The translations under genes were made by a program, and so were the position numbers. DNA of 64,000 bases, taken from the NCBI GenBank assembly GCA_039028615.1, contig JBCCHT010000019.1:152267-216266 (forward strand), read 5' to 3'. The notes below the pieces were generated by a model that was not told the origin of the DNA, ran no database searches, and saw only the letters and a list, made by a program, of their open reading frames with translations. Below, one piece after another: positions 9,916 to 23,166 of this stretch; within the stretch, counting starts at the first letter, position 1; each line of letters opens with the position of its first letter. This DNA is from Myxococcota bacterium. Its GTDB lineage: Bacteria; Myxococcota_A; Polyangia; Nannocystales; Nannocystaceae.

Positions 9916-12657
9916 ATGAGCACCGATCCCCCCAACGACTCCGAGCCCGAGTCCGAGTCCTCGGGCGCCGACCAACCCGCCGATCTGCTGCGGGTCGAAG
10001 GGTTGGTGCCGCTCCCGGTCGCGGCCGCCGTGGACGGGGGCTCCGAGGACGAAGACGAGGACGAGTACTCGGGCGGCTACGGGGTCGAGGCGCTGCCGCG
10101 AGGCACTCAGCTCGGCCGCTACGTGCTGCTGGGTCGCGTTGCCGGGCGCGAAGGCGCGGTGGTCTACGGGGCCTACGATCCCGAAGAAGACCGCAAGGTC
10201 CTGCTCAAGCTCTTCGACCCGGGGGGTGACGACGACGACGAGGACGCGGCCCAGGCGGTGCGGCTCGAGCTCGCCCGCCAAGCGCAAGGCGTCGCCAAGG
10301 TCTCGCACCCCTGCGTCGAGCAGATCCACGAGGTCGGCGTCTACGACCACTGGGTCTTCCTCGCCACCGAGTTCGTCGACGGCCTCAACGTACGCCAATG
10401 GATGGAGGTCCGCGACGACCCCTTCCCCTGGCCCGAGGTGCTGCGAGTGTTCCGCGAGGCGGGCCGAGGCCTCGCCGCGGCACACAAGCAACGCATCGTG
10501 CACCGCGACTTCCGTCCCTCCAACGTCCTCATGGGCAAGGAGGGCCGCCTCGTCGTCATCGACTTCGGTCTCGCGCCCGAGGTCGAAGAAGAAGACGACG
10601 ACATCGAGGTCTCCGCGCTGCGCGAGTCGCTGTCCGGGGCCGCGCTCGAGGACACCCAGCCCGGCCCGGCCGGCATGGCGGGCACCCCCGCCTATATGGC
10701 GCCCGAGCAGCACCTCACCGGGCAGGCCGACGCTCGCTCCGACCAGTTCAGCTTCTGCGTCGCGATGTACGAAGCGCTCTACGGCGAGCGTCCGTTCTCC
10801 GGCAACCGCCCTCGCGCCATCGCGCTCGAGGCGGCCAAGCACAAGGTGCGGCCCGCTCCGCCCGACTCCAACGTCCCCGCCTGGCTGCGCGCCATCGTGA
10901 TTCGCGGCCTGAGCCCGCGCCCCAAAGATCGATTCCCCACCATGGAGGCGCTGCTGCGCGAGCTGGCGCGAGACCCCTCGGCCCGGCGTCGCCGCTGGCT
11001 GTGGGGCGCCGCGGGAGCGGCCGGCATGATGGGCGTCATCGGCCTCACCGCGTGGGCCTTCGAGGCCGACCAAAACGCCTGCGACGACACCAGCAGCGCC
11101 CTGGCCGAGGTGTGGACCATCGAGCGACGCGAGGCGCTGGGCGAGGTGTTCACCGCCACCGAGCGGCAGTGGGCCGAGCCGACCTGGCGCTACACCGAGT
11201 CCAAGCTCGACGCGTGGTCGAGCGTATGGGCCGACTATAGCCGCTTGGCCTGCCAGGCCACCCGGGTGTGGGGCGACGCGGCCGAGAAGACCTACGAGCT
11301 GCGGGTCGCCTGCCTCGACCGTCACCTCACCGAGTTCGATGCCACCCTCGAGGCACTCGCCGAGGTCGACGGACCCATGCTCGACCGCGCCCATGCGCTG
11401 GCCCAGCGCCTGCCCGATCCGCGGCGATGTACCGACACCAGCGCGCTGTTCGTGCTCGGTCAGCCCCCCGAGGACAGCCGCGAGCAGATCGACGGCCTGC
11501 ATCGCCAGATGGCCGGGCTCGAGGCGCGCTTGGTCCTCGGCCAGGCCGGCGCGGTGTCGCACGAGATCGGCGGCCTTCTACCCGAGGCCGACGCCACCGA
11601 AAACGACGCCCTCATCGCACGCGGACACTTGCTGCGGGGGCGAGCCGAGCTGGCCAAGGGCAACCCCGAAGCCGAGGCCCTGCTGCACGGCGCGGCCCAA
11701 GAGGCCCTGCGTGCGGGCGACACCAGCCTCGCCGCCATCGCGTGGCGCGGTCGCGTGGATGCCTTGTTGCAGCGAGACCGGGCGGCCGAAGCAGGCGCGC
11801 TGGTCGACTACATCGACGCAGTGATGGCCAACAAGCGCTTCGAGTGGCTGCGCCCCGATCTCGCCATCGCGCGTGGTCGCGCCGAACTGGCCCAGGGCCG
11901 CTCCGCGGAGGCGCTCGGTCACTTCTACGCCGCCATCGAACTCGAAGAGGGCCGCAACGACGCCGATCCCTTGCGGCTATTGCCGGCGTGGCTCGGCCAG
12001 GCCGAGGTGCTCGACGCCCACGAGGACACCCAAGAGGCCATCGCGCCCATCAAGACCGCGCTCGACGTCACCCGCAACACGCTCGGGCCCCAGCACCCCG
12101 CCGCGGTCGAGCTCCTGCAGCGCCTCGGGCAGCTCCAGCAACGCGAGGGGCTGCTCACCGACGCCCGGCCGAACCTCGAGCAAGCGCTCGAGATCACCCG
12201 CATGGCCGGCAACGGCGATCCGGGGCGCATCGCCGAGCTCGAGACCTCGCTCGGCCGAATCCTGCAGACCGAAGGCGACGTCGCTTCGGCTGCGATCCAC
12301 TTCGAGCGCGCCTACGAGCTGGTGCAGGGCAAGACCCCGACCGGGGCCTCGTTCCGTGCCGGGCTCCGCGTCGCCCGGGCTCGCCTCGAGCTGCGACGCA
12401 AAGCCGAGGCCCGCACCCTGCTCGCGCAACTGCTCACGACCTACCCGCCCGGTGCTCCCATCGGACGCGACGGCCCCACCTCCTTCGAGCTCGCCCAGGC
12501 CGAGCTGCTGCTGGCCACCCTGGTGTGGGACGACGGCGAAGCCGAGCGCGCCCGCGAGCTGGCCACCCGCAGCATCGCGCGCCCCGGTGAGAGCCTCGAG
12601 CAGGGGATCCATCGCGACGAAGCGCAGCGCTGGCTCGAAGAACACCCTGCCCCATGA
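9916..12657 (+). CDS. Membrane Ser/Thr protein kinase with C-terminal TPR-like region
   Basis: HRDFRPSN, DFGLA, GTPAYMAPEQ, SDQFSFCV, TM segment after RRRRW, LGPQHP TPR-type repeats. Confidence 0.9.
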   Translation: MSTDPPNDSEPESESSGADQPADLLRVEGLVPLPVAAAVDGGSEDEDEDEYSGGYGVEALPRGTQLGRYVLLGRVAGREGAVVYGAYDPEEDRKVLLKLFDPGGDDDDEDAAQAVRLELARQAQGVAKVSHPCVEQIHEVGVYDHWVFLATEFVDGLNVRQWMEVRDDPFPWPEVLRVFREAGRGLAAAHKQRIVHRDFRPSNVLMGKEGRLVVIDFGLAPEVEEEDDDIEVSALRESLSGAALEDTQPGPAGMAGTPAYMAPEQHLTGQADARSDQFSFCVAMYEALYGERPFSGNRPRAIALEAAKHKVRPAPPDSNVPAWLRAIVIRGLSPRPKDRFPTMEALLRELARDPSARRRRWLWGAAGAAGMMGVIGLTAWAFEADQNACDDTSSALAEVWTIERREALGEVFTATERQWAEPTWRYTESKLDAWSSVWADYSRLACQATRVWGDAAEKTYELRVACLDRHLTEFDATLEALAEVDGPMLDRAHALAQRLPDPRRCTDTSALFVLGQPPEDSREQIDGLHRQMAGLEARLVLGQAGAVSHEIGGLLPEADATENDALIARGHLLRGRAELAKGNPEAEALLHGAAQEALRAGDTSLAAIAWRGRVDALLQRDRAAEAGALVDYIDAVMANKRFEWLRPDLAIARGRAELAQGRSAEALGHFYAAIELEEGRNDADPLRLLPAWLGQAEVLDAHEDTQEAIAPIKTALDVTRNTLGPQHPAAVELLQRLGQLQQREGLLTDARPNLEQALEITRMAGNGDPGRIAELETSLGRILQTEGDVASAAIHFERAYELVQGKTPTGASFRAGLRVARARLELRRKAEARTLLAQLLTTYPPGAPIGRDGPTSFELAQAELLLATLVWDDGEAERARELATRSIARPGESLEQGIHRDEAQRWLEEHPAP

Positions 12658-13823
12658 CCTCGTCTCGTCGCTGCCTCGCCACGCCCGGCTTGCTCGTCGC
12701 GCTCGGCCTGAGCCTCGCATGTGAACCTCCCGGCGCCACCGCGCCCAGTCGCGTGCCCGTGCGGCCCGACGCGGTGCTCAACGTGCCCTATCCCGTCAGC
12801 GAGCCCGAGCGCATCGAAGGGGCCGGACGCAAGACCCTCTCCGAGGCGCAGTTCGTGTTCATCAGCCTGGGCGCGCCGCCCGACGAGCGCGACCACGCCC
12901 TGCCCGAGCGCGTGGCCTCCGAGGGGCCCATGCTGCTCGCCCATCACTTCGGCCCCGTGGGCACGCACGCCACGGCCTGGCAGGAGCTTCGCCGGCTGGC
13001 CTTCGGTCGCGGCATCCCGCCGCGCGGCCAGGCGCAGCCCGTTCCCGCCGAAGAGGTCGAAGCACTCGGGTTGCAGGCGCCCGCGTCGAGCGTGTGGCTC
13101 GTCGGTCCCGACGGCAGCTGCCGCGCCGAAGTCGGGGAGCCGCTGGTCGGCGTCTACGACGGCCCCGAGGACACCGTCGCCGTGGGCTACCGCCTCGAGG
13201 GATGCTCCGGCCGACGGTGGGCCCAGGTCGGCATCATCTCCGATGGCATCCCCGTCGACTTTCGCTGGGTCCCCGCCGAGCTGTCCTCCGAGCAGATCCT
13301 CGCCTACGGCAGCGAGTGGGACGACCCGCTCCCTACCCTCGTCGACCCGCCCGCGTGGTCGCACGCGATGACGCCGGGCTTCGACCAAGTCCGCGTGCAC
13401 GAGATCCCCGACGTCTCGCCGCGCGTGCTGCAGCTGCACCGCGCCTGGACCTCCGAGCATCCCGATCGCACGGAGCGAGCATGGTGCGAGATCGAGGCCG
13501 CGTGGAGCCACACCGAAGGCTGGTACAACGGCCGATGGATCGATCCCGTGCCCTGGGTCCCCGACGCCACCGACCCCTTCCTGCTCGGCGCGTTCGTCAA
13601 CGGCGAGCAAGTCGACGCCGTGCTCTATGACGATCGCTTCGACGGCCTGGTCGTCGTGCCGCCGGGGCCGCTCGACGACATGAACGACGCGAGCGCATGG
13701 ACCCAAGTGTTCGTGCCCACCGGGCACTATCACGACGACGAGCTCACCCGTTGGGGCGTGGAGCCGGCTCGCGGGGCTCTGCCGCTGGGTCCGCGATGCG
13801 AAACCGACGGCGACTCGCCATGA
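12654..13823 (+). CDS. Hypothetical lipoprotein
   Basis: Lipobox LSLAC; ATGA overlaps with neighbours on both sides. Confidence 0.75.
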   Translation: MTSSRRCLATPGLLVALGLSLACEPPGATAPSRVPVRPDAVLNVPYPVSEPERIEGAGRKTLSEAQFVFISLGAPPDERDHALPERVASEGPMLLAHHFGPVGTHATAWQELRRLAFGRGIPPRGQAQPVPAEEVEALGLQAPASSVWLVGPDGSCRAEVGEPLVGVYDGPEDTVAVGYRLEGCSGRRWAQVGIISDGIPVDFRWVPAELSSEQILAYGSEWDDPLPTLVDPPAWSHAMTPGFDQVRVHEIPDVSPRVLQLHRAWTSEHPDRTERAWCEIEAAWSHTEGWYNGRWIDPVPWVPDATDPFLLGAFVNGEQVDAVLYDDRFDGLVVVPPGPLDDMNDASAWTQVFVPTGHYHDDELTRWGVEPARGALPLGPRCETDGDSP

Positions 13824-14539
13824 GTTCGGTCGTGGTGAGGCCAGCCGCTGCGCCCCGCTGGGGCCGTCGACGGCTGCTGTGGTCGCTCGTCGCGATGGCC
13901 GGCTGCGCGAGCGCCAAGGGCCCGCCGAAGGCCCCCGACGGCGCGGCCGAGGTCGTGCTCTCGATGCAGGGCATCGACTGCCAGAGCTGCGGACAGACGG
14001 CGGTCGAGGCCCTCACCGCCACCCCCGGGGTCTATGTCGCCTCGTTCGAGCGCGACGCGGTCGAGCTTCACGTCGCCTACGATGCCGCCCAGGTCGACCC
14101 GCCGCAGCTGCTGGCGGTCGTGCACGGGCTCGGCTACCGGGCAATACGAGGGCCGGGCCAGGGCGCCTACACCTCGGAGGTCGTCTTCGCCCCCGGGCTC
14201 GACGTCCAGCAGATTTCCACCGACGGCGAGCTGGTCGACCTCGAGGCCTTCCTCGTCCCCGGCAAGGTCACCGTCTTCGACTATCACGCCGTGTGGTGCG
14301 GGCCCTGCAAAGAGGTCGACCGCCACATGCTGGCCCTGCTCGAGCGCAACGACGACATCGCCCTGCGCAAGCTCGACGTCGTCGACTGGAGCAGCGCGCT
14401 CGCGACCAAGCACCTCGGGAAGGTGGCCACCCTGCCCTACCTCATCGTGCACGGCCGCAGCGGCAAGCCCATCGCCCAGATCGCCGGCCTCGACCTGGTC
14501 GCCCTCGACCGCGCCATCGAGCGAGGCCGTCGTCGATGA
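13820..14539 (+). CDS. Lipoprotein with heavy-metal-associated (HMA) domain fused to thioredoxin domain
   Basis: Lipobox MAGC; GIDCQSC (HMA CxxC); DYHAVWCGPCK ... LPY (thioredoxin). Confidence 0.88.
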   Translation: MSSVVVRPAAAPRWGRRRLLWSLVAMAGCASAKGPPKAPDGAAEVVLSMQGIDCQSCGQTAVEALTATPGVYVASFERDAVELHVAYDAAQVDPPQLLAVVHGLGYRAIRGPGQGAYTSEVVFAPGLDVQQISTDGELVDLEAFLVPGKVTVFDYHAVWCGPCKEVDRHMLALLERNDDIALRKLDVVDWSSALATKHLGKVATLPYLIVHGRSGKPIAQIAGLDLVALDRAIERGRRR

Positions 14540-15603
14540 GGTTCCGGCGGCTCACCTTGTCGCTCGGCTTGGCGATGGGCCTGACGGCGGCGGGCTCTCC
14601 CGACATCGCCCTGGCCGGCCCCTGAGCGGGTTGAAGCAACCCCAACCTCCCGGGTGGAGGTACGACCGCATATCAGACTCCGATGGATCGGGGCCGCCTT
14701 CGCTTCGGCGCCTCGATGCTCTACTCGTATATCAACGCCGCCCACGACGTGGACCCGGAGCAGTTCGAGCCCGGCATTCCCTTCGAGGACCAGGCGGCCG
14801 AGCATCAGCTCGGCATCAACATGCTCGAGTGGGACGTGGACGCGCAGTTCGGCGTGCACCGTCGCTTCGCCTTCGAGCTGATGCTGCCCATCCGCACCAC
14901 GATCATCGATGCGTCCTTCGCCGACGCCCAGGGTCGGCCGCTGCCAAACTTCCAGAGCATTCACCACCGCGACGAAGTCATCGCGGGCGTGGGTGACCTG
15001 ACCTTCGGCGGCCGCATCGGCCTGGTGCTCCCGGAGAACGTACCCCGCTGGACCCTGGCCCTGCGCACGGGCGTTTCGCTGCCCACGGGCAACACCGAGC
15101 CGGACCCCTTTGCCCTCGGGGCGGCCGGCCAAGAGCACCAGCACATGTTCTTCGGCTCCGGGACCGTCGATCCGCGGATCGGCTTCGACACCAACGTGGC
15201 CTTCGATCGCTGGGGCCTGGTGGGGTGGTCCCTGCTCGAGGCGCCGCTGTACTCGAACAAGCACGGCTACCGCGGCAGTACCGTCGTCGTCGGCGGCATG
15301 GGAGCGCAGTCGGGCTTCGGCCTGCAGCGCTGGTCGTTTCTCGTGCAGCCCGAGGTCTACTTCGAGACGCCCGCGCGCTGGAACGACACCCTCGCTCGCA
15401 ACAGCGGCCGTACCAGCCTCATCGCGACCGCGGGAGCCTTCTTCTTGCCGACTCCGCAGTGGCGCCTGCATGCGCTGGTCAAGGTGCCCTACGCCACCTT
15501 CGCTCGCGGCGGGCAGCTGCGCTGGCCCATCGTCGCGCTCCTGGGCTTCAGCTACACCGTCCAGGTCGGCAAGCCCGAGCGCGACGGCCATCACCACGGC
15601 TGA
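14536..15603 (+). CDS. Predicted selenoprotein (U30, U33; UxxU): outer-membrane beta-barrel transporter-like protein, 355 aa with read-through
   Basis: ATG 14536 overlaps the upstream stop; signal peptide ending ALA; in-frame TGA at 14623-14625 and 14632-14634; the frame continues without further stops into ORF 14683-15603 (GVGDL, GVSLPTG, GSGTVD, GFSYT, GHHHG). Confidence 0.82.
14645..14661 (+). promoter_or_regulatory. Candidate bacterial SECIS hairpin
   Basis: ACCTCC-CGGGT-GGAGGT, 6-bp stem with G-rich 5-nt loop; 16 nt separate the loop from the second UGA and 25 nt from the first. Confidence 0.65.
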
Positions 15604-15614
15604 CGCCGGATCGC

Positions 15615-16463
15615 TCAGGTCCCCGACACCAGGCGCTGCAGAGCGAGGGTGGCCCCGAAGGCCAGCACGGCGAAGGGGATGAGGTCGGGCCGCCCCGCGT
15701 GCGCGACGAGCAGCGCGTCGACCAGCGCGATGCCGGCAATGAGCGAGATGATGCCCGTGCGGATCGAGCCCGAAGCCCGTCCTCGCACGAGGCGAAGGCA
15801 ACGAAGCACCCACAGGCAGAAGCCTGCGAACAGGCCTTTGACCAGCATGGGCCCGAGCACCAGGCTCCAGGTCACCACCGCGGGGCTCCACAAGCCCGCC
15901 AGCGGGCCGTAGCGCACCAGGGCGTTCGTGTTCTCGTGCGCCGCGGCAAAGGTCAGCCCGAGTACGTACAGCAGCAGCACCGCCGCGCCGAGCCACACGG
16001 CGACGGGCAGCGTCCAGGTCACGGACAAGGCCGCGGTCAGGTACAGACCCACCCGGCACGCCCCCATGATCACGGGCCCGAAGGGGTTGCCCTTGTGGTT
16101 GACGTTGTAGGCGACGATGAGACCGATGGTGCCCGCAGCACCCAGCAGCGGTCCCAGGCCGAGGCTTCCCGCCACGACCAGGGCGAGCACGAAGAGCAGG
16201 CCGACCGCACGCAGGACCTCGCCGGCTCGGACCTCGCCCGAGGGGATCGGCCGCTCCGCTCGTTCCTTGGCGTCGATCTCGGCGTCGCAGTAGTCGTTGA
16301 GGAACATGCCGCCGACGTACAGCAGCGAGGCCATGAGCCCCAGCCGACCGTACACGCTGGGCGTGAGGGCTCCGCCCGCCAGCACCAGGCCCGCCAACAC
16401 GTTGCTCCACACGGTGGGGAGGTTGGACACGCGACCGAGTTTGAGCGCCGTCGAGAGTTTCAT
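15615..16463 (-). CDS. eboC: UbiA-family prenyltransferase, EboC-like
   Basis: LGRVSNLPTVWSN, GGMFLNDYCDAEIDAKERAERPIPSG, MGACR; multi-TM; ebo context. Confidence 0.88.
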   Translation of the reverse strand: MKLSTALKLGRVSNLPTVWSNVLAGLVLAGGALTPSVYGRLGLMASLLYVGGMFLNDYCDAEIDAKERAERPIPSGEVRAGEVLRAVGLLFVLALVVAGSLGLGPLLGAAGTIGLIVAYNVNHKGNPFGPVIMGACRVGLYLTAALSVTWTLPVAVWLGAAVLLLYVLGLTFAAAHENTNALVRYGPLAGLWSPAVVTWSLVLGPMLVKGLFAGFCLWVLRCLRLVRGRASGSIRTGIISLIAGIALVDALLVAHAGRPDLIPFAVLAFGATLALQRLVSGT

Positions 16464-17728
16464 GGGGTGCGGTCTTTCGAGGTCAGAGGAACGCGGCAGT
16501 GATCGAGGACCCAGCGTAGCTCCCGAGTGATGGCATCGGTCAGCGGCACGTCGCGCAGCGTGGGCGGAAGCACGCTCCACGTATAGGTCTCGACCTCCAC
16601 GTGATCGCATAGCCCCGCGCCGAGGACCTCGTGCAGCAGCGCCTCGAGCACGCCGTCGGTATTGCGAAAGGGCGGGATCTCGGACTGGAAGACGGGCACG
16701 TGGTAGTGCACGCGCCAGCTTTGCGCGGGGCACTCGCCCGCCGCGTGAGCGGCCATGGCCTGCGGTAGGTCGAGGAAGCGGCGGAGCGAAGCTCCCTGCT
16801 CCGAAGTCTCGTCGAGTCGGGCGACGACCTGATGGAGGTAGACGTCCTCCGCGAACGCCTTCAGGTGCTCGAGCGCCGACGCGTCGACCGGCTCGATGTG
16901 GAGCCCGGTCGTGGCCTGGAGCTTCGCCACCCGCACGCCCGCCGCACGCAGGGCCGCGACGCTCCGCGCAGGGTCTTCGTACTCGACCGCGGCATGGCAG
17001 GTATCGAGGCACAGGCCCAGGTGGTAGCGCAGCGCCTCCTCGGCTTTCGACGGGCTCAGCCCGGTGAGCGCCACCATGCGCCGCGTGGCCTCGGCCGACC
17101 ACAGGCGTGCCTCGAAGAACGCAATGGCCTCGGCGGTGGTCTCGAGCATGCACTCGGGCTCGGGCTCGAGGGCCAACGCGATGTCGACCCCGCGCTCTTC
17201 GGCGTGGCGCCACAGCATCGCCGCGGTCCGCAGCAGGTGCTCGACGAGTGCATCCGGGGGCGCCGACGGGTCGTAGCCCTCACTCCGCGGACCGACGAGC
17301 GGCCGAAAGCCTCCTGGGACCGTGCTGATCGAGCCTCGGACCCCCGCGGGCAACAGCCGGGCGAGGATCGTGGCGAGCACCTCGGTATAGCGAAGCCGCT
17401 CGGCCGTGCTCCAGTCGGGCTGGTAGACCGACTCTTTGACCGGCTGCGCGTGGAAATCCCCGTGCGGGAACCCGTTGAGCGTGAACACGTAGAGCCCGCG
17501 CTCGTCGAGAGCATCGGCGAACGCATCGAGTCCCCCGGGTGCGGCCATGAGTTCATCCGCCGCGCGGGCGGACAACCGCAGGCCGATGCCGAAGGGGGCA
17601 TCGGGACTGAGCGCCGCCTTCACGGTGGGCGCATGCGTCAGCACGTTATCGCGGGTCTCCGCCCAGCTCTCCCCCGGGTGGATGTTGCTGCAGTACGTCA
17701 GGTGTACTGCGCCATCGAGAATGCGCAT
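16460..17728 (-). CDS. eboE: EboE (xylose-isomerase-like TIM barrel)
   Basis: LTYCSNIHPGESW, FTLNGFPHGDFH, LEPEPEC, YLHQV, WRVHYHVP, EVETYTWSVLP. Confidence 0.93.
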   Translation of the reverse strand: MRILDGAVHLTYCSNIHPGESWAETRDNVLTHAPTVKAALSPDAPFGIGLRLSARAADELMAAPGGLDAFADALDERGLYVFTLNGFPHGDFHAQPVKESVYQPDWSTAERLRYTEVLATILARLLPAGVRGSISTVPGGFRPLVGPRSEGYDPSAPPDALVEHLLRTAAMLWRHAEERGVDIALALEPEPECMLETTAEAIAFFEARLWSAEATRRMVALTGLSPSKAEEALRYHLGLCLDTCHAAVEYEDPARSVAALRAAGVRVAKLQATTGLHIEPVDASALEHLKAFAEDVYLHQVVARLDETSEQGASLRRFLDLPQAMAAHAAGECPAQSWRVHYHVPVFQSEIPPFRNTDGVLEALLHEVLGAGLCDHVEVETYTWSVLPPTLRDVPLTDAITRELRWVLDHCRVPLTSKDRTP

Positions 17729-17730
17729 GG

Positions 17731-18921
17731 TCAGCCCGCGCGCGCGTGGGTCGGAATGGACTCGACGACCGAGGTCATGAGCGCATGGTCGATCTCGTGG
17801 ATCTCGAAGCCCTGGCCGAGCCCCTCGAGCAAGGTCAGGGTCAGCTCGCCCCCCAGGTGCTCGCGAAACTCCTCGAGACCCACGAGCAGCTCGAGCTCCC
17901 CCTTGGGCGCGCGCCTCAGCTGCGCTTCGTGCCACGTGGGCAGGCCCAGCGCGACCAGCAGGCTCTCGATGCGCTGCGCGGCCTCGGCGTCGAGCCGACC
18001 GATCTCGACCGAGTAACGGCTGTCGATGGTGATGCCGATGGACACCGCCTCGCCGTGACGCAAGCCGTGCCCGCTGAGCACCTCGAGCTTGTGCGCCGAC
18101 CAGTGGCCAAAATCCAGGGGCCGCGCGCTGCCGTTTTCGAATGGGTCCCCACCGTCGCGAATGTGCTCGAGGTGGAGCTCGGCACAGCGGCGGATCATGT
18201 AGGCGGTGGCATCGGGCTCACCCACGCGCAGGTCGTGAGCGTGGGCCTCCATCCACTCGAAGAACGCGACGTCCTTGATCAGCGCGACTTTCACCGCCTC
18301 GGCCATTCCCGCCAAGCGGTCGCGCTCGCTGAGGCTGAACACGAAGTCGAGATCGTTGATGACCGCCGACGGCGGCGCAAAGGTCCCCAACGCGTTCTTG
18401 TGACCGAACGCATTGATGCCGTTCTTCACGCCGACCCCGGCATCGTTTTGCGCGAGCACCGTAGTCGGCAATCGCACGACTCGAATGCCGCGGTGCGCCA
18501 GTGCTGCCGCATAGCCCGCCGCGTCGAGCACCGCGCCTCCACCGATGATCATCACCGTGCAGTGGCGATCGAGATGGGCGGCAAAAAACGCCGCCTGCAG
18601 CTCGTGGATCAACGCGGGATCGTTCTTCGCCGCCTCGCCTCCGACCAAGGATCGCGGGGGCGCGGCGAGCTCGAGCACATCGGCGTGATGGTCGAAATAC
18701 GCCTGGATTCGGGCATTCAGCTCGGGCCAGGCCTCGAGCACCCCGCTGTCGACGACCACGAAGACCCGACACTTGCGGCCCTCGGACGACCCCGCTTGCT
18801 CGACCAGGGTCGTGCGCAGCACGAGGTCGTGGGGGGCCAACACGCCGCGGGTGAACACCACCGGGTAGTCGAACACCACCCCTACGCGTTGCGCCCAACG
18901 GTGGGTCACGGCCCCGCCCAT
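17731..18921 (-). CDS. eboD: 3-dehydroquinate synthase-like sugar-phosphate cyclase EboD (start uncertain)
   Basis: GGEAAKN, GGGAVLD, PTTVLAQNDAGVGVKNG, RPLDFGHWSAHKLE, HGEAV. Confidence 0.9.
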   Translation of the reverse strand: MGGAVTHRWAQRVGVVFDYPVVFTRGVLAPHDLVLRTTLVEQAGSSEGRKCRVFVVVDSGVLEAWPELNARIQAYFDHHADVLELAAPPRSLVGGEAAKNDPALIHELQAAFFAAHLDRHCTVMIIGGGAVLDAAGYAAALAHRGIRVVRLPTTVLAQNDAGVGVKNGINAFGHKNALGTFAPPSAVINDLDFVFSLSERDRLAGMAEAVKVALIKDVAFFEWMEAHAHDLRVGEPDATAYMIRRCAELHLEHIRDGGDPFENGSARPLDFGHWSAHKLEVLSGHGLRHGEAVSIGITIDSRYSVEIGRLDAEAAQRIESLLVALGLPTWHEAQLRRAPKGELELLVGLEEFREHLGGELTLTLLEGLGQGFEIHEIDHALMTSVVESIPTHARAG

Positions 18922-18972
18922 GTGCCCGTCCATCGCGGCGGATGGTAGCTCAGGCCCAAGCAGTGGTCCACA

Positions 18973-19407
18973 ATGCCCGCCATGGACCCGAGCGAGCAGA
19001 ACCAATCGCAACGATGGCTACAGCGCTTCCTCGAAGAACACCAAGCGGTGGCGGGCACGGTCCATCGACTCGACCGACAAACCCAGGATTTGCACCTCGA
19101 AGCCGCGGTCAACATCCCCCCCAAGGTGCAGGACGCGACCCGGGTGATTCCCCGAGGCAAAGGCATGGCGGGTCTCGCACTCGAGCGCCATCGCCCCGTG
19201 TCCACCTGCAACCTCGCGACCGACGAAGGCAACCCCGACGTGCGCCCCGGGGCACGCGCGGTGGAAGCCGCGGCCGCAATCGCGCTGCCCGTCGATGACG
19301 ACGCGGGTCAGGTGCGGGCCGTGGTGGGCATCGCCTACGCGAGCGAGCGGCCGATCGACGACGCTCTGCTCGCTCCGCTGCAGGCCGCGGTCACCACCCT
19401 GCCCTAG
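18973..19407 (+). CDS. Stand-alone GAF-domain protein
   Basis: IPRGKGMAGLA, TCNL, VRPGA, AIALPV ... AVVGIA GAF pattern. Confidence 0.8.
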   Translation: MPAMDPSEQNQSQRWLQRFLEEHQAVAGTVHRLDRQTQDLHLEAAVNIPPKVQDATRVIPRGKGMAGLALERHRPVSTCNLATDEGNPDVRPGARAVEAAAAIALPVDDDAGQVRAVVGIAYASERPIDDALLAPLQAAVTTLP

Positions 19408-20114
19408 GACTTCGACAGACCGAGCACGTACTGCAGGTCGTCGGAGAGCGCCCGACCGGCCGCGGTGCGCTCGCTGGCGTAGCCCCGAGCCATCCGTTCG
19501 AGCTCGGCGCCATGACGCTGCTCGATGCCCACGATCTCGCGCGCGGGCGCCCCGATGAACAACGCCTTGAGCACCATCTGGTTGAAGCTCGCCTCGGAGA
19601 AGTGCTCGGCCGGATACGGGTTTTTTGTGGCCAAGGCCGAGAACACCGACACCGCGTTGGTGCGACAGGCATCGACCGCGAGGTCGACGAAGCGTTCGGG
19701 TCCCGGCAAGTAGCTCAGGCTGCGCAGGAGGCTCTCCTGCTCGCTCAGCTCGCCGCTGCGGAACAGACGCGTGACCAGCCCCACGTGCTCGTCACTCGAG
19801 AGCGTATCGAGCTGCGCGTGGAGCAAGGCCAGTCGCGCGAGGTCGAACGCGCGCCAGCTCGGCACGGCCATGGCGTCCGGCAACCCATGCGCCGCGGCAG
19901 CCTCGGCATCGATCTCGATCGACGTCGCGCCCGTCTTGCGGCGCGCCCGGGCAAAGACGATCCGCAGCGTACGCTCCTGGGGGCTGCCCTCGGTGGGCCC
20001 GTCGTCGCCGAAGCTCGGGAGGGTCTCGTCGAGCCAGGTCTTGGCCGGCTGTAGGCCCTGCCCTTCCAGCAATGCGAGCACACCGACGACCAGCGGGGTC
20101 CGAGGGGAGACCAT
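19404..20114 (-). CDS. eboA: EboA domain protein
   Basis: GELSEQESLLRSL, ACRTN, NPYPAEHF, FNQMVLKALF, YASERTAAGR. Confidence 0.9.
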   Translation of the reverse strand: MVSPRTPLVVGVLALLEGQGLQPAKTWLDETLPSFGDDGPTEGSPQERTLRIVFARARRKTGATSIEIDAEAAAAHGLPDAMAVPSWRAFDLARLALLHAQLDTLSSDEHVGLVTRLFRSGELSEQESLLRSLSYLPGPERFVDLAVDACRTNAVSVFSALATKNPYPAEHFSEASFNQMVLKALFIGAPAREIVGIEQRHGAELERMARGYASERTAAGRALSDDLQYVLGLSKS

Positions 20115-20140
20115 CGCGGCGACGCTATCACAGCCCCGCG

Positions 20141-20776
20141 TCAGGCCTCGTCAGCGCCGGACTCGAACCGACGGCCCCACACCCACGCCAAACCGGCGAG
20201 CCCGAGCACCGCGCCGAAGATCAACAACGAGTCGTCGAACGACACGCCCCAGGCTCCGACCAACGCGAACGCCACCGCCGCCGGGATCGACCCCACTGCG
20301 CTCGCGACGAGCATCTTGGTCCACCCGAACGATGAAGTCCCGGCGAGAATGGCTACGCTTTCGGCGACGATGGGCACGGGTCGCGTCGCGATGATGGCGA
20401 CCATGCCCCAGCGCTGCAACAACGCGTCGGCGCGGGCGCGCTGCTGCTCGGTCACCAGACGATCCAGCCACCGTCCCCCGCGGCGACCGATGCCGAAGCC
20501 GACGGCCGCCGCCGCCACGCTCCCCACCAGCGACAACGCAGCGCCGAGCACCGCACCGAAGAGCACCCCGTGGGCGATCATGATCACGGAGGCGGGCACG
20601 GGGATCAGCACGTCGGCGACGAGCAAGCCGACGCCCACCAACGCCGCGAGTACGCCTCCCCCCGACATCGCCTGGTTGGGGTCTCGCAATACCGAAATGT
20701 CGAAGGCTTCGACCGCACCGAAGAGGGCCAAGAAGAACATCGCCATCCCGGCGAAGATCCCGACGTAGCGCCCCAT
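20141..20776 (-). CDS. DedA/VTT (SNARE-associated) membrane protein
   Basis: ADVLIPVPAS, GSVAAAAVGFGIGR, RWGMVAIIATRPVP; multi-TM. Confidence 0.85.
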   Translation of the reverse strand: MGRYVGIFAGMAMFFLALFGAVEAFDISVLRDPNQAMSGGGVLAALVGVGLLVADVLIPVPASVIMIAHGVLFGAVLGAALSLVGSVAAAAVGFGIGRRGGRWLDRLVTEQQRARADALLQRWGMVAIIATRPVPIVAESVAILAGTSSFGWTKMLVASAVGSIPAAVAFALVGAWGVSFDDSLLIFGAVLGLAGLAWVWGRRFESGADEA

Positions 20777-20854
20777 GCGGGCGGACCATAGCACCTCCCC
20801 TGCTTCGACCTGCGTGCTACGGTGCCGCCCGAACTTCGCGCCCGAGACGCTCCG

Positions 20855-21766
20855 ATGCCGCTTTTCGATCCTCATATCCACATGACCTCCCGGACCACCG
20901 ACGACTACGAGGCCATGGCGGCGGCCGGGATCGCGGCCATCGTCGAGCCGGCGTTCTGGCTCGGTCAGCCGCGGACCCACGTCGGCTCCTTCGAGGACTA
21001 CTTCCTGTCCCTGCTCGGCTGGGAACGCTTCCGCGCCAGCCAGTTCGGCATTCGCCACTTCTGCACGATGGGGCTCAACCCCAAAGAGGCCAACAACGAG
21101 GCCTTGGCCAAGGGGGTCATGGATCTCCTGCCTCTGTACCTCGAAAAGGAAGGCGTGGTCGCGGTCGGAGAGATTGGCTACGACGACATGAGCGACGCGG
21201 AGCACGAGCTGTTCGCGGCGCAGGTTCGGCTGGCGGTGGAGTTCGAGCTCCCGGTCCTCATCCACACCCCGCACCGAGACAAGCACGCGGGCACGCTTCG
21301 CACCCTCGAGCTCATGCGCGAGCTGGGCTTTCCCCCTGAACTCACCCTCGTCGATCACAACACCGAAGAGACCCTCGGCGCCGTGCTCGAGTCGGGGTGC
21401 TGGGCGGGGCACTCCATCTATCCCGAGACCAAGATGGACGAGCACCGCATGGTCGCGCTGGTCCAGAAGTACGGACCCGAGCGCATCCTGGTCAACAGCG
21501 CGGCCGACTGGGGCGTCAGCGATCCACTCAAGGTGCCCAAGACCGCCGCCGCCATGCGCGAGGCGGGCATCTCCGAGGCCGCCATCGAGCAGATCTGCTG
21601 GAACAACCCAGTGCGGTTCTTCGCCCAGAGCGGCCGGCTCGATCTCGAAGAGGTCGACACCGCGCTGAGCGTCGATCAGCGCGAGCTGTGGCAGGGCAAC
21701 TCCGTGCTCCGCGGGCAGTCGCCGCGCATCGACGAAGGGGACTCGGGCGCAGGAAACCCGGCATGA
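20855..21766 (+). CDS. eboB: TatD-family hydrolase EboB
   Basis: FDPHIHMTSRTTDDY, EPAFWLGQPR, GEIGYD, IHTPHRDK, NSAADWG. Confidence 0.92.
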   Translation: MPLFDPHIHMTSRTTDDYEAMAAAGIAAIVEPAFWLGQPRTHVGSFEDYFLSLLGWERFRASQFGIRHFCTMGLNPKEANNEALAKGVMDLLPLYLEKEGVVAVGEIGYDDMSDAEHELFAAQVRLAVEFELPVLIHTPHRDKHAGTLRTLELMRELGFPPELTLVDHNTEETLGAVLESGCWAGHSIYPETKMDEHRMVALVQKYGPERILVNSAADWGVSDPLKVPKTAAAMREAGISEAAIEQICWNNPVRFFAQSGRLDLEEVDTALSVDQRELWQGNSVLRGQSPRIDEGDSGAGNPA

Positions 21767-23166
21767 ACCGAACGGTCGTCCTCGACGTCGTCGGCCTCAC
21801 CCCCAGCCTGCTCGGCCCCGACACGCCCCGCCTGCAGCAGTTTGCCGAGCGGGGCACCCTGCGACCGATCCAGACGATCACCCCGGCCGTCACCTGCTCG
21901 GTGCAGTCGACCTTCGTGACCGGGGCGCTGCCGCGCGAGCACGGCTGCGTCGCCAACGGCTGGTACTTCCGCGATCTGGCCCAGGTGTGGCTGTGGCGTC
22001 AGGCCAACGCGCTGGTCGGCGGCAACAAGCTGTGGGATCTGGCCCGCGCTCGCGACGATCGCTTCCGCTGCGCCAAGTTGTTCTGGTGGTACAACATGTA
22101 CGCGGACGTGGACTGGGCCGTGACCCCACGTCCGATCTACCGGGCCAACGGGCGCAAGCACCCCGACGTGCACACCAGCCCGGTCGGGCTGCGTGAGCGG
22201 CTCGATGGCGAGCTGGGCACCTTCCCCCTGTTCAACTTCTGGGGACCGAACGCCAACATCACCTCCTCGCAGTGGATCGCCGACTGTGCCTCGCTCATGG
22301 AGCGCTGGCACGAGCCCACGCTGAGCTTGGTCTACCTGCCGCACCTGGACTACGCCCTGCAGAAGTACGGGCCGGGTGCCCCCGAGAGCCGAGCCGCCCT
22401 GCGCGAGATCGATACGCTCTGCGGAGAGCTCATCGAGCGCTTCGAGGCGGCCGGGCTTCGCATCGTCGTGCTGTCCGAGTACGGCATCACCCCCGTCACC
22501 GGGCCCGTCCACATCAATCGAGCCCTGCGCGAGGCCGGCCTGCTCGGCTGGCGCGAAGAGATGGGCGAGGAGCACTTCGACGCGGGCGCGTCACAGGCCT
22601 TCGCGGTGGCGGACCATCAGATCGCCCACGTCTACGTGCGAGACCCGGGTCAGATCGCCGAGGTCAAAGCGCTGCTCGAGAAGCTCGATGGCGTGGACGA
22701 AGTCCTCGATCGGGAGTCCATGGCGGCCTACGGCCTCGACCATCCACGCTCGGGCGAGCTGGTGGCCTTGAGCAAGCCCGAGCGCTGGTTCTCCTACTAC
22801 TACTGGCTCGACGACGCGCGCGCCCCCGACTACGCCCGCACCGTCGACATCCATCGCAAGCCGGGCTACGACCCCGCCGAGCTGTTCCTCGACCCGCAGT
22901 TGCGCGCCCCCATGCTGCGCATCGGGTCGTATCTGCTGCGCACCAAGGTCCTGGGCCAGCGCGCCCTGCTCGACGTCATTCCGCTCGACGGCAGCCTCGT
23001 CCGCGGCTCCCATGGCCGGGTCACCGCGAGCGCCGAAGACGGGCCGCTGTTCATCACCAACGCCCCGGAACAGCTCCGCGACGCCAATGGTGCCCTGCTC
23101 GGCGACAGCCAGAGCCTCGAGGCCACGGCCGTACAGGGGGTGCTCCTGCGTCACCTCTTCGACTGA
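21763..23166 (+). CDS. eboF: Alkaline phosphatase/nucleotide pyrophosphatase family protein EboF
   Basis: PAVTCSVQST, YLPHLDY, AVADHQIAHVYV, VDIHRKPGYDPAEL, GSHG; ATGA overlap with eboB. Confidence 0.9.
   Translation: MNRTVVLDVVGLTPSLLGPDTPRLQQFAERGTLRPIQTITPAVTCSVQSTFVTGALPREHGCVANGWYFRDLAQVWLWRQANALVGGNKLWDLARARDDRFRCAKLFWWYNMYADVDWAVTPRPIYRANGRKHPDVHTSPVGLRERLDGELGTFPLFNFWGPNANITSSQWIADCASLMERWHEPTLSLVYLPHLDYALQKYGPGAPESRAALREIDTLCGELIERFEAAGLRIVVLSEYGITPVTGPVHINRALREAGLLGWREEMGEEHFDAGASQAFAVADHQIAHVYVRDPGQIAEVKALLEKLDGVDEVLDRESMAAYGLDHPRSGELVALSKPERWFSYYYWLDDARAPDYARTVDIHRKPGYDPAELFLDPQLRAPMLRIGSYLLRTKVLGQRALLDVIPLDGSLVRGSHGRVTASAEDGPLFITNAPEQLRDANGALLGDSQSLEATAVQGVLLRHLFD

Follow-up and report, generated by a model that had tools for sequence, protein, structure and literature searches.

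Genetic organization of the locus

The window, a 64,000-nucleotide stretch of a Nannocystaceae genome (Myxococcota; 12.3 Mb, 68% GC), carries on its forward strand a gene (14536..15603) that encodes 355 residues when TGA is read as U: a signal peptide, an arm with a UxxU motif, a predicted 12-stranded barrel of the COG4313 fold and a short His tail. The predicted Sec-pathway signal peptide (14536..14616, 27 residues) shows a basic start, a hydrophobic core and an ALA cleavage motif, and is followed by GP-U30-AG-U33. The first in-frame UGA, putative Sec30, is located at 14623..14625 and the second, putative Sec33, at 14632..14634; they belong to the N-terminal arm (14617..14694), i.e., mature residues 1–26, ahead of strand 1. 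The stop codon lies at 15601–15603.

The ATG at 14536 shares the sequence ATGA with the TGA stop of an upstream gene on the same strand (13820..14539; the start codon is uncertain and could be at 13697, 13796 or 13820). This gene encodes a probable lipoprotein with a lipobox-like Cys (13904), an HMA domain with a CQSC motif (13979–13990) and a thioredoxin domain with a WCGPC motif (14294–14308); it matches Pfam PF00403 and PF00085 over their cut-offs. Farther upstream is a 389-aa lipoprotein-like ORF (12654–13823) that matches neither Pfam nor NCBIfam. On the other side, a cluster convergent on the barrel gene (15615–23166) encodes UbiA, DHQ-synthase-like, TatD and phosphodiesterase proteins; it resembles the eboA-F cluster and is not conserved beside homologs of the barrel gene.

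The sequence-only reading had proposed that the ATG at 14536, overlapping the upstream stop, begins a signal peptide joined in frame to an ORF at 14683, with UGAs at codons 30 and 33 and a GHHHG end. All of this proved correct on re-translation: the 306-aa ORF (translation table 11) that starts at 14683 is in the frame of this ATG, and the protein ends in GHHHG. The predicted signal peptide agrees with a heuristic based on hydrophobicity and AxA, which finds a hydrophobic stretch before the motif in 84/84 loci and a strict AxA within the last eight residues in 64/84 (no control set). The expectation that standard gene callers would truncate such genes also held, as the 120 database matches listed all cover at most 87% of the query and none has a CxxC in its first 80 residues. 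The earlier reading did not include the SECIS-like hairpin, the cluster of conserved His or the coupled partner gene with its metal and thioredoxin domains.

Among named homologs, the closest are those of Paraliomyxa miuraensis, a cultured bacterium whose gene (L019) is of the UxxU type, and of Nannocystaceae MAGs. No second paralog of the barrel was found in the window's genome, a search of a plasmid collection gave no match and a promoter and terminator scan at the locus gave nothing above shuffles. The one public sequencing run that contains this stretch yields a contig identical over 13700–15700; this identity is not independent, since the run may be the window's own source. No RNA run is listed as containing the stretch.

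Conservation of the motif and link to the Sec machinery

At the DNA level, a homolog is present in 12 of the 73 genomes of the family and in 62 of the 401 sampled genomes of the phylum (the window's genome being included in both counts). Classification was possible for 70 loci, which come from 69 genomes and comprise 56 UxxU, three CxxU, 11 CxxC and no UxxC. The first position is thus TGA in 56/70 loci and Cys in 14/70, and the second TGA in 59/70 and Cys in 11/70. This count leaves out G176 (contig edge), G184 (a fragment in which no motif was found), G327 (UxxxU), G095 (CGTCGCG N-terminus) and the duplicate or fragment loci L019–L022, L030, L036 and L040. Fifteen further UxxU loci were obtained by a pattern search of metagenomes; as they were selected on motif and hairpin, they were kept out of the motif and SECIS counts, and 14 of them (one being a duplicate) were used for neighbourhood counts only.

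The proposal that homologs carry Cys or Sec at positions 30 and 33 is confirmed by the CxxC, CxxU and UxxU loci. Each of the 11 other genomes of the family with the gene has TGA-x-x-TGA in this position, and the pair aligns with CxxC in relatives; the two in-frame TGAs are therefore not due to chance. A CxxC within the first 80 residues was found in 12/264 database proteins. Three homologs (P0229, P0230 and P0248) carry a single-Cys motif, ATCSNP, instead of CxxC.

As looked for following the sequence-only reading, the window's genome encodes the Sec machinery, with selA, selB and selD over curated cut-offs and a tRNA-Sec with a UCA anticodon. A selA match is found in 57 of the 58 U-bearing genomes (one of them, in G388, partial) vs none of the 11 CxxC genomes, the base rate over cut-off being 244/401 in the phylum sample. 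The sole U-bearing genome without a selA match, G033, is 71% complete and has a selD with an in-frame TGA. Neither selB nor selD was found over cut-off in the 11 CxxC genomes, which are 84–97% complete. Where a genome lacks the Sec machinery, its relative of the barrel has CxxC instead. A quick tree from which the motif was left out groups 10 of the 11 CxxC genomes in a single clade and places G198 elsewhere, so the co-distribution with selA rests on about two independent events; over all 92 rows of this tree, the CxxC label requires three to six changes.

Taken as a whole, the comparison of these loci indicates that both UGAs are very probably recoded as Sec and that the gene would encode a di-selenoprotein. 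A pseudogene, a sequencing error or a genetic code in which UGA means Trp is barely credible: the only support for any of them is the two stops themselves, while the TGAs persist in many families, line up with Cys and not with Trp, and co-occur with the Sec machinery and a covarying hairpin.

A distant barrel, L112 (G095:C84), has the CGTCGCG N-terminus and comes from a genome without a selA match, which suggests that a broader superfamily with Cys-rich plugs exists.

SECIS-like hairpin and probable decoding of the two UGAs

A 17-nt SECIS-like hairpin, ACCTCC-CGGGT-GGAGGT (14645..14661, forward strand), begins at nucleotide 11 after the second UGA and has its loop G at nucleotide 18. Its position and size are those of the SECIS of Escherichia coli, for which an 11-nt spacing and a 17-nt minimal stem-loop are given in the available part of PMC11431864. 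A rule requiring at least five pairs, a loop start at nucleotides 17–19 and a G in the first two loop positions is satisfied by 58/59 U-loci, 1/11 Cys loci and 7156/228656 genomic TGAs (3.1%); 58/59 is a fitted figure, as the rule was set after the family had been seen. Among 57 distinct U-type sequences, 78% of the cells are paired and 17 double-sided changes occur (0/500 shuffles); slid controls gave 40–62% of paired cells, and one slide reached 15 double-sided cells. Taken by itself, the stability of the hairpin does not reach significance (z −0.04 to 0.6); the evidence for it consists of position, conservation and covariation.

None of the 56 UxxU loci has a separate hairpin at canonical spacing for the first UGA. 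Most likely, one downstream SECIS serves both UGAs; its loop G follows the second UGA by 18 nt and the first by 27 nt. In the distant homolog L110 (G327:C15), the motif is UxxxU (USGGU) and the hairpin loop is still 18 nt after the second UGA, which fits a flexible reading from one SECIS. In the same way, a single downstream SECIS was proposed for the UXXU hydrogenases, a Cys-inserting tRNA being raised as an alternative (PMC13582414, seen in part). Transposed to the barrel, this alternative would imply that the first UGA is read inefficiently or as Cys by a tRNA of the SelC*/tRNA-ReC type, giving mostly a CxxU product or a selenium-dependent brake. The restriction of canonical spacing to the second UGA would fit this proposal, as would the occurrence of three CxxU and no UxxC loci and the enrichment of tRNA-ReC in genomes with UXXU hydrogenases (same partial source). 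It is nevertheless very unlikely: the window's genome has a single canonical tRNA-Sec and a single SelB above cut-off, with no evident SelC*, the first TGA persists in 56 loci, even where identity falls to about 25%, and the UxxxU variant with its hairpin fixed to the second UGA fits the one-SECIS reading. In view of the 11-nt spacing rule (PMC11431864, in its available part), the natural series UxxU, CxxU, CxxC and UxxxU offers a way to study the decoding of two UGAs by a single bacterial SECIS.

When the whole genome is scanned for open TGAs with a hairpin behind them, the second UGA of the barrel gene ranks 71st of 6790. FdhA, DsbA-like, Prx-like and AhpD-like candidates, named from their motifs, rank high, with a loop G at nucleotides 18–19. 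Many such candidates share the SECIS spacing of the barrel gene (FdhA, DsbA-like, several Prx/TlpA-like and AhpD-like; contigs C36, C68, C14, C1, C50, C42, C5, C21 and C33 of the window's genome, G000), and together they would make a large selenoproteome for a myxobacterium. Several other TGAs rank high in the scan, for example C12:129314 and one on the minus strand of C11. The genome also carries extra atypical tRNA-Cys(GCA) genes (G000:C9:257702–257778 and C27:171633–171707), among four predicted.

Predicted barrel fold, N-terminal arm and conserved histidines

Two AlphaFold2 models, with Sec replaced by Cys, give a 12-stranded barrel (pLDDT 92, pTM 0.88). The best structural match is Pput2725 (4rl8; Z 24.7, rmsd 2.8 over 252 aligned residues, 10% identity), followed by FapF (Z 24.1, rmsd 2.7 over 249 residues); autotransporters score below both (Z at most 18.8 with the first model and 19.6 with the second). 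The match to PF13557 is marginal (23.6 and 25.3 bits vs a cut-off of 22), and 24 of the 140 aligned members match this profile at E<=0.01. The assignment to COG4313/Phenol_MetA_deg-type outer-membrane barrels made in the sequence-only reading agrees with both the profile and the predicted structure. According to these models and to the predicted signal peptide, the product is an exported, 12-stranded outer-membrane barrel of the COG4313 type with an N-terminal arm that may lie in its lumen.

Residues 13/14–26 of the arm superimpose on the luminal plug of Pput2725, the alignment beginning at residue 1–2 of that protein. The first ten residues are modelled with a pLDDT of 57–58, a confidence that was not raised by an alignment restricted to full-length sequences. 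The second model superimposes from residue 1 on the pre-cleavage EspP autotransporter (3slt; Z 19.6, rmsd 3.5 over 253 residues), hinting that the arm may run up the barrel lumen.

Six conserved His (mature residues 43, 63, 116, 117, 174 and 176; 14743..15144, forward strand) are located in or at three long loops. Each of them is His in 124–129 of the 134–138 rows of alignment A1 that have a residue at this position. From standard barrel topology, we infer that these loops are extracellular. At least five of the six His are kept in 55 of the 59 barrels with a thioredoxin partner vs 8 of the 20 without, six of the twelve losses corresponding to a single clade. Sixteen of the 81 locus-derived barrels have at most four of these His yet keep the motif.

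Comparison with known proteins

The new barrel shares the fold of Pput2725 (PDB 4RL8; PF13557, Phenol_MetA_deg) but has an arm of about 26 residues instead of about 14. In that protein, the lumen is closed off by a plug of roughly the first 14 residues, and an uptake of hydrophobic molecules via a lateral exit was proposed (PMC4493636, in the sections available). The UxxU/CxxC motif, the six conserved His and the thioredoxin/metal-domain partner are features of the new barrel, and the word 'cysteine' does not appear in the available text on Pput2725 (PMC4493636). FapF (PDB 5O65), a secretion barrel for functional amyloid, also has the same fold and is the only profile match among solved sequences (E about 0.005); however, no fap genes are conserved near the new barrel and FapF is not a listed selenoprotein.

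SELENOL forms a diselenide and carries its UxxU within a thioredoxin/Prx fold. By contrast, the motif described here lies on an arm ahead of a beta-barrel. None of the catalogued UxxU proteins (NF041115 metal-binding, FmdB-family and Prx-like proteins, group 4 [NiFeSe] hydrogenases and SELENOL) is an outer-membrane barrel. NF041115 (cut-off 95 bits) does not match the barrel; the HMA domain of the partner scores 31.8 bits against it, with Cys and not Sec. Outer-membrane barrels with Sec have been predicted, namely a TonB-dependent receptor of the FCYXU type (NF049945) and the MtrB/PioB barrel GSU2204 (NF041027) (PMC13188914, available part). They nevertheless belong to different families and have one Sec each, and neither profile matches any of the 140 aligned members at E<=0.01. 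Sec is extremely uncommon in transporters according to the available part of a preprint (Haft, bioRxiv 10.1101/2022.07.06.499078). The same text describes the ABC permease selenoprotein SaoP, in which, much as could be the case here, two Sec were suggested to act as a gate or binding site for a substrate that contains metal. Unlike the new barrel, SaoP is a permease of the inner membrane; it is found in anaerobic Firmicutes, has a single Sec in each subunit and adopts an unrelated fold.

From the lists checked, this is an uncatalogued selenoprotein family. It is not among the 119 prokaryotic selenoprotein families listed in 2026 (PMC13188914, Table 1; paper seen in part), nor does it appear in the accessible text and supplements of the deep-Sep study PMC12013277. 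No NCBIfam family matches the protein at E<=0.1, and no NCBIfam model represents the family (140 aligned members, E<=0.01). The available parts of the other literature (including PMC9312934, PMC2398784, PMC5877670, PMC10455571 and the Haft preprint) contain no description of it; subscription papers or bioRxiv supplements could hold one. The family would be a widespread addition to known selenoproteins, held in databases mostly as truncated hypothetical proteins that lack both the export signal and the active motif. The lists checked contain no outer-membrane channel with a Sec pair on its plug either. With this family, metal or redox traffic becomes a candidate role for COG4313-fold barrels.

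The thioredoxin/metal-domain partner

A gene with a thioredoxin domain is the only conserved neighbour of the barrel. It is found in 61/84 loci, upstream in 56 and as a C-terminal fusion, mostly after a His-rich linker, in five; it is absent within the flank read in 20/84 loci, and three have too little flank. These numbers include two manual corrections (L078, fused; L043, none). Start and stop codons of the barrel gene and of the upstream partner overlap in 50/56 cases. The N-terminal domain of the 56 upstream partners is of the HMA type in 38, another Cys/His-rich domain in 13, and absent or unclear in five (one being cut by a contig end). The 13 partners with the other domain, an ESQCxxCH type that no Pfam profile matches, are those of all 11 CxxC loci and of two UxxU loci. 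This domain, which replaces HMA, reads CxHxVPxxxCxxCxP...WCxxHxxPESQCxxCH and occurs in the upstream genes at L070–L072, L075–L077, L083, L085, L090, L091, L093, L099 and L104.

No operon is common to the 21 wider loci. Pfam matches of 196 ORF stretches (188 from these loci and eight from the window) include no mer, cop or czc operon, but only one multicopper oxidase and one DsbD; for the wider loci, the scan covered 188 of the 236 called ORF stretches, long ones being cut to 420 aa. The window's genome has a DsbD-type gene.

Proposed role

A role in the handling of metals or electrons at the cell surface is probable for this family. The reading favoured here, a soft-metal channel maintained by thioredoxin, has about an even chance of being correct. 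Barrel and partner would form a two-part envelope module for the handling of soft metals (Cu(I) most likely; Ag, Hg or Zn conceivable), whose functioning can be viewed as follows. The His-rich outer loops would gather a metal ion, and the selenolate pair on the arm would bind and gate it. The periplasmic HMA domain, or the His-rich linker in fused forms, would then take over the ion. The thioredoxin domain, fed by DsbD, would re-reduce the diselenide or disulfide formed in the oxidising envelope. This model is favoured because two independent accessory features, the His loops and the exchangeable metal-type domains, point to metal, and the thioredoxin partner suggests that a dithiol or diselenol has to be maintained under oxidising conditions. 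Against it, the ORF stretches scanned show no mer, cop or czc operon, 20/84 loci lack a partner within the flank read, 16/81 barrels keep the motif with at most four of the His, five partners have no recognisable metal domain, and the characterised relatives are tied to hydrophobic solutes (Pput2725, in the paper cited above) or to amyloid export (FapF), not to metals. Moreover, if the UxxU is at the outer mouth, a position modelled with a pLDDT of 57–58, a periplasmic thioredoxin would reach it only if the arm moves.

The constancy of the thioredoxin, which is the most constant partner and is kept both without HMA and in fusions, would also suit a redox relay that crosses the outer membrane without heme. 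In it, the thioredoxin would reduce the arm diselenide from the periplasm, and arm selenolates at the outer mouth would reduce outside substrates such as disulfides, polysulfide, Cu(II) or Se oxyanions. The superposition of the second model, from residue 1, on the lumen-spanning helix of pre-cleavage autotransporters (3slt) agrees with this, as the location of this helix would put the motif near the outer mouth. However, the pLDDT of the arm is 57–58, and neither the HMA-type domain of 38/56 partners nor the His loops are needed for a pure relay. We know of no precedent for it and consider it rather unlikely. A combined scheme seems comparably tentative: a cytochrome-free conduit in which a lumen-threading diselenide arm, reduced from the periplasm, would pass electrons to the surface or take metal from it, both Sec being inserted from one SECIS at two spacings.

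The nearest structures, Pput2725 and FapF, would fit a redox-gated channel for an organic or peptide substrate, as in FapF or other COG4313 members; the diselenide would open or shut the plug and metal binding would be secondary. Uptake of hydrophobic molecules through a plugged barrel was indeed proposed for Pput2725 (PMC4493636, accessible sections). Such a channel is unlikely here, as no catabolic or amyloid genes are conserved nearby and the sole conserved neighbour is the metal-domain/thioredoxin gene.

Compared with these readings and with the favoured soft-metal channel, a selenium uptake channel supplying Sec synthesis appears highly improbable, although no specific high-affinity selenium transporter is known according to the available part of PMC13188914 and sel genes lie close to the barrel in 2/21 wider loci. 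Intact CxxC versions with partners exist in 11 genomes without a selA, selB or selD match, and an importer that requires selenium for its own making would be self-limiting. Furthermore, the two sel-linked loci come from one family. Both contain barrel–thioredoxin fusion genes: selA-selB adjoins L133 (G364), and a Sec-type selD is located a few kb from the fusion gene of L115 (G369).
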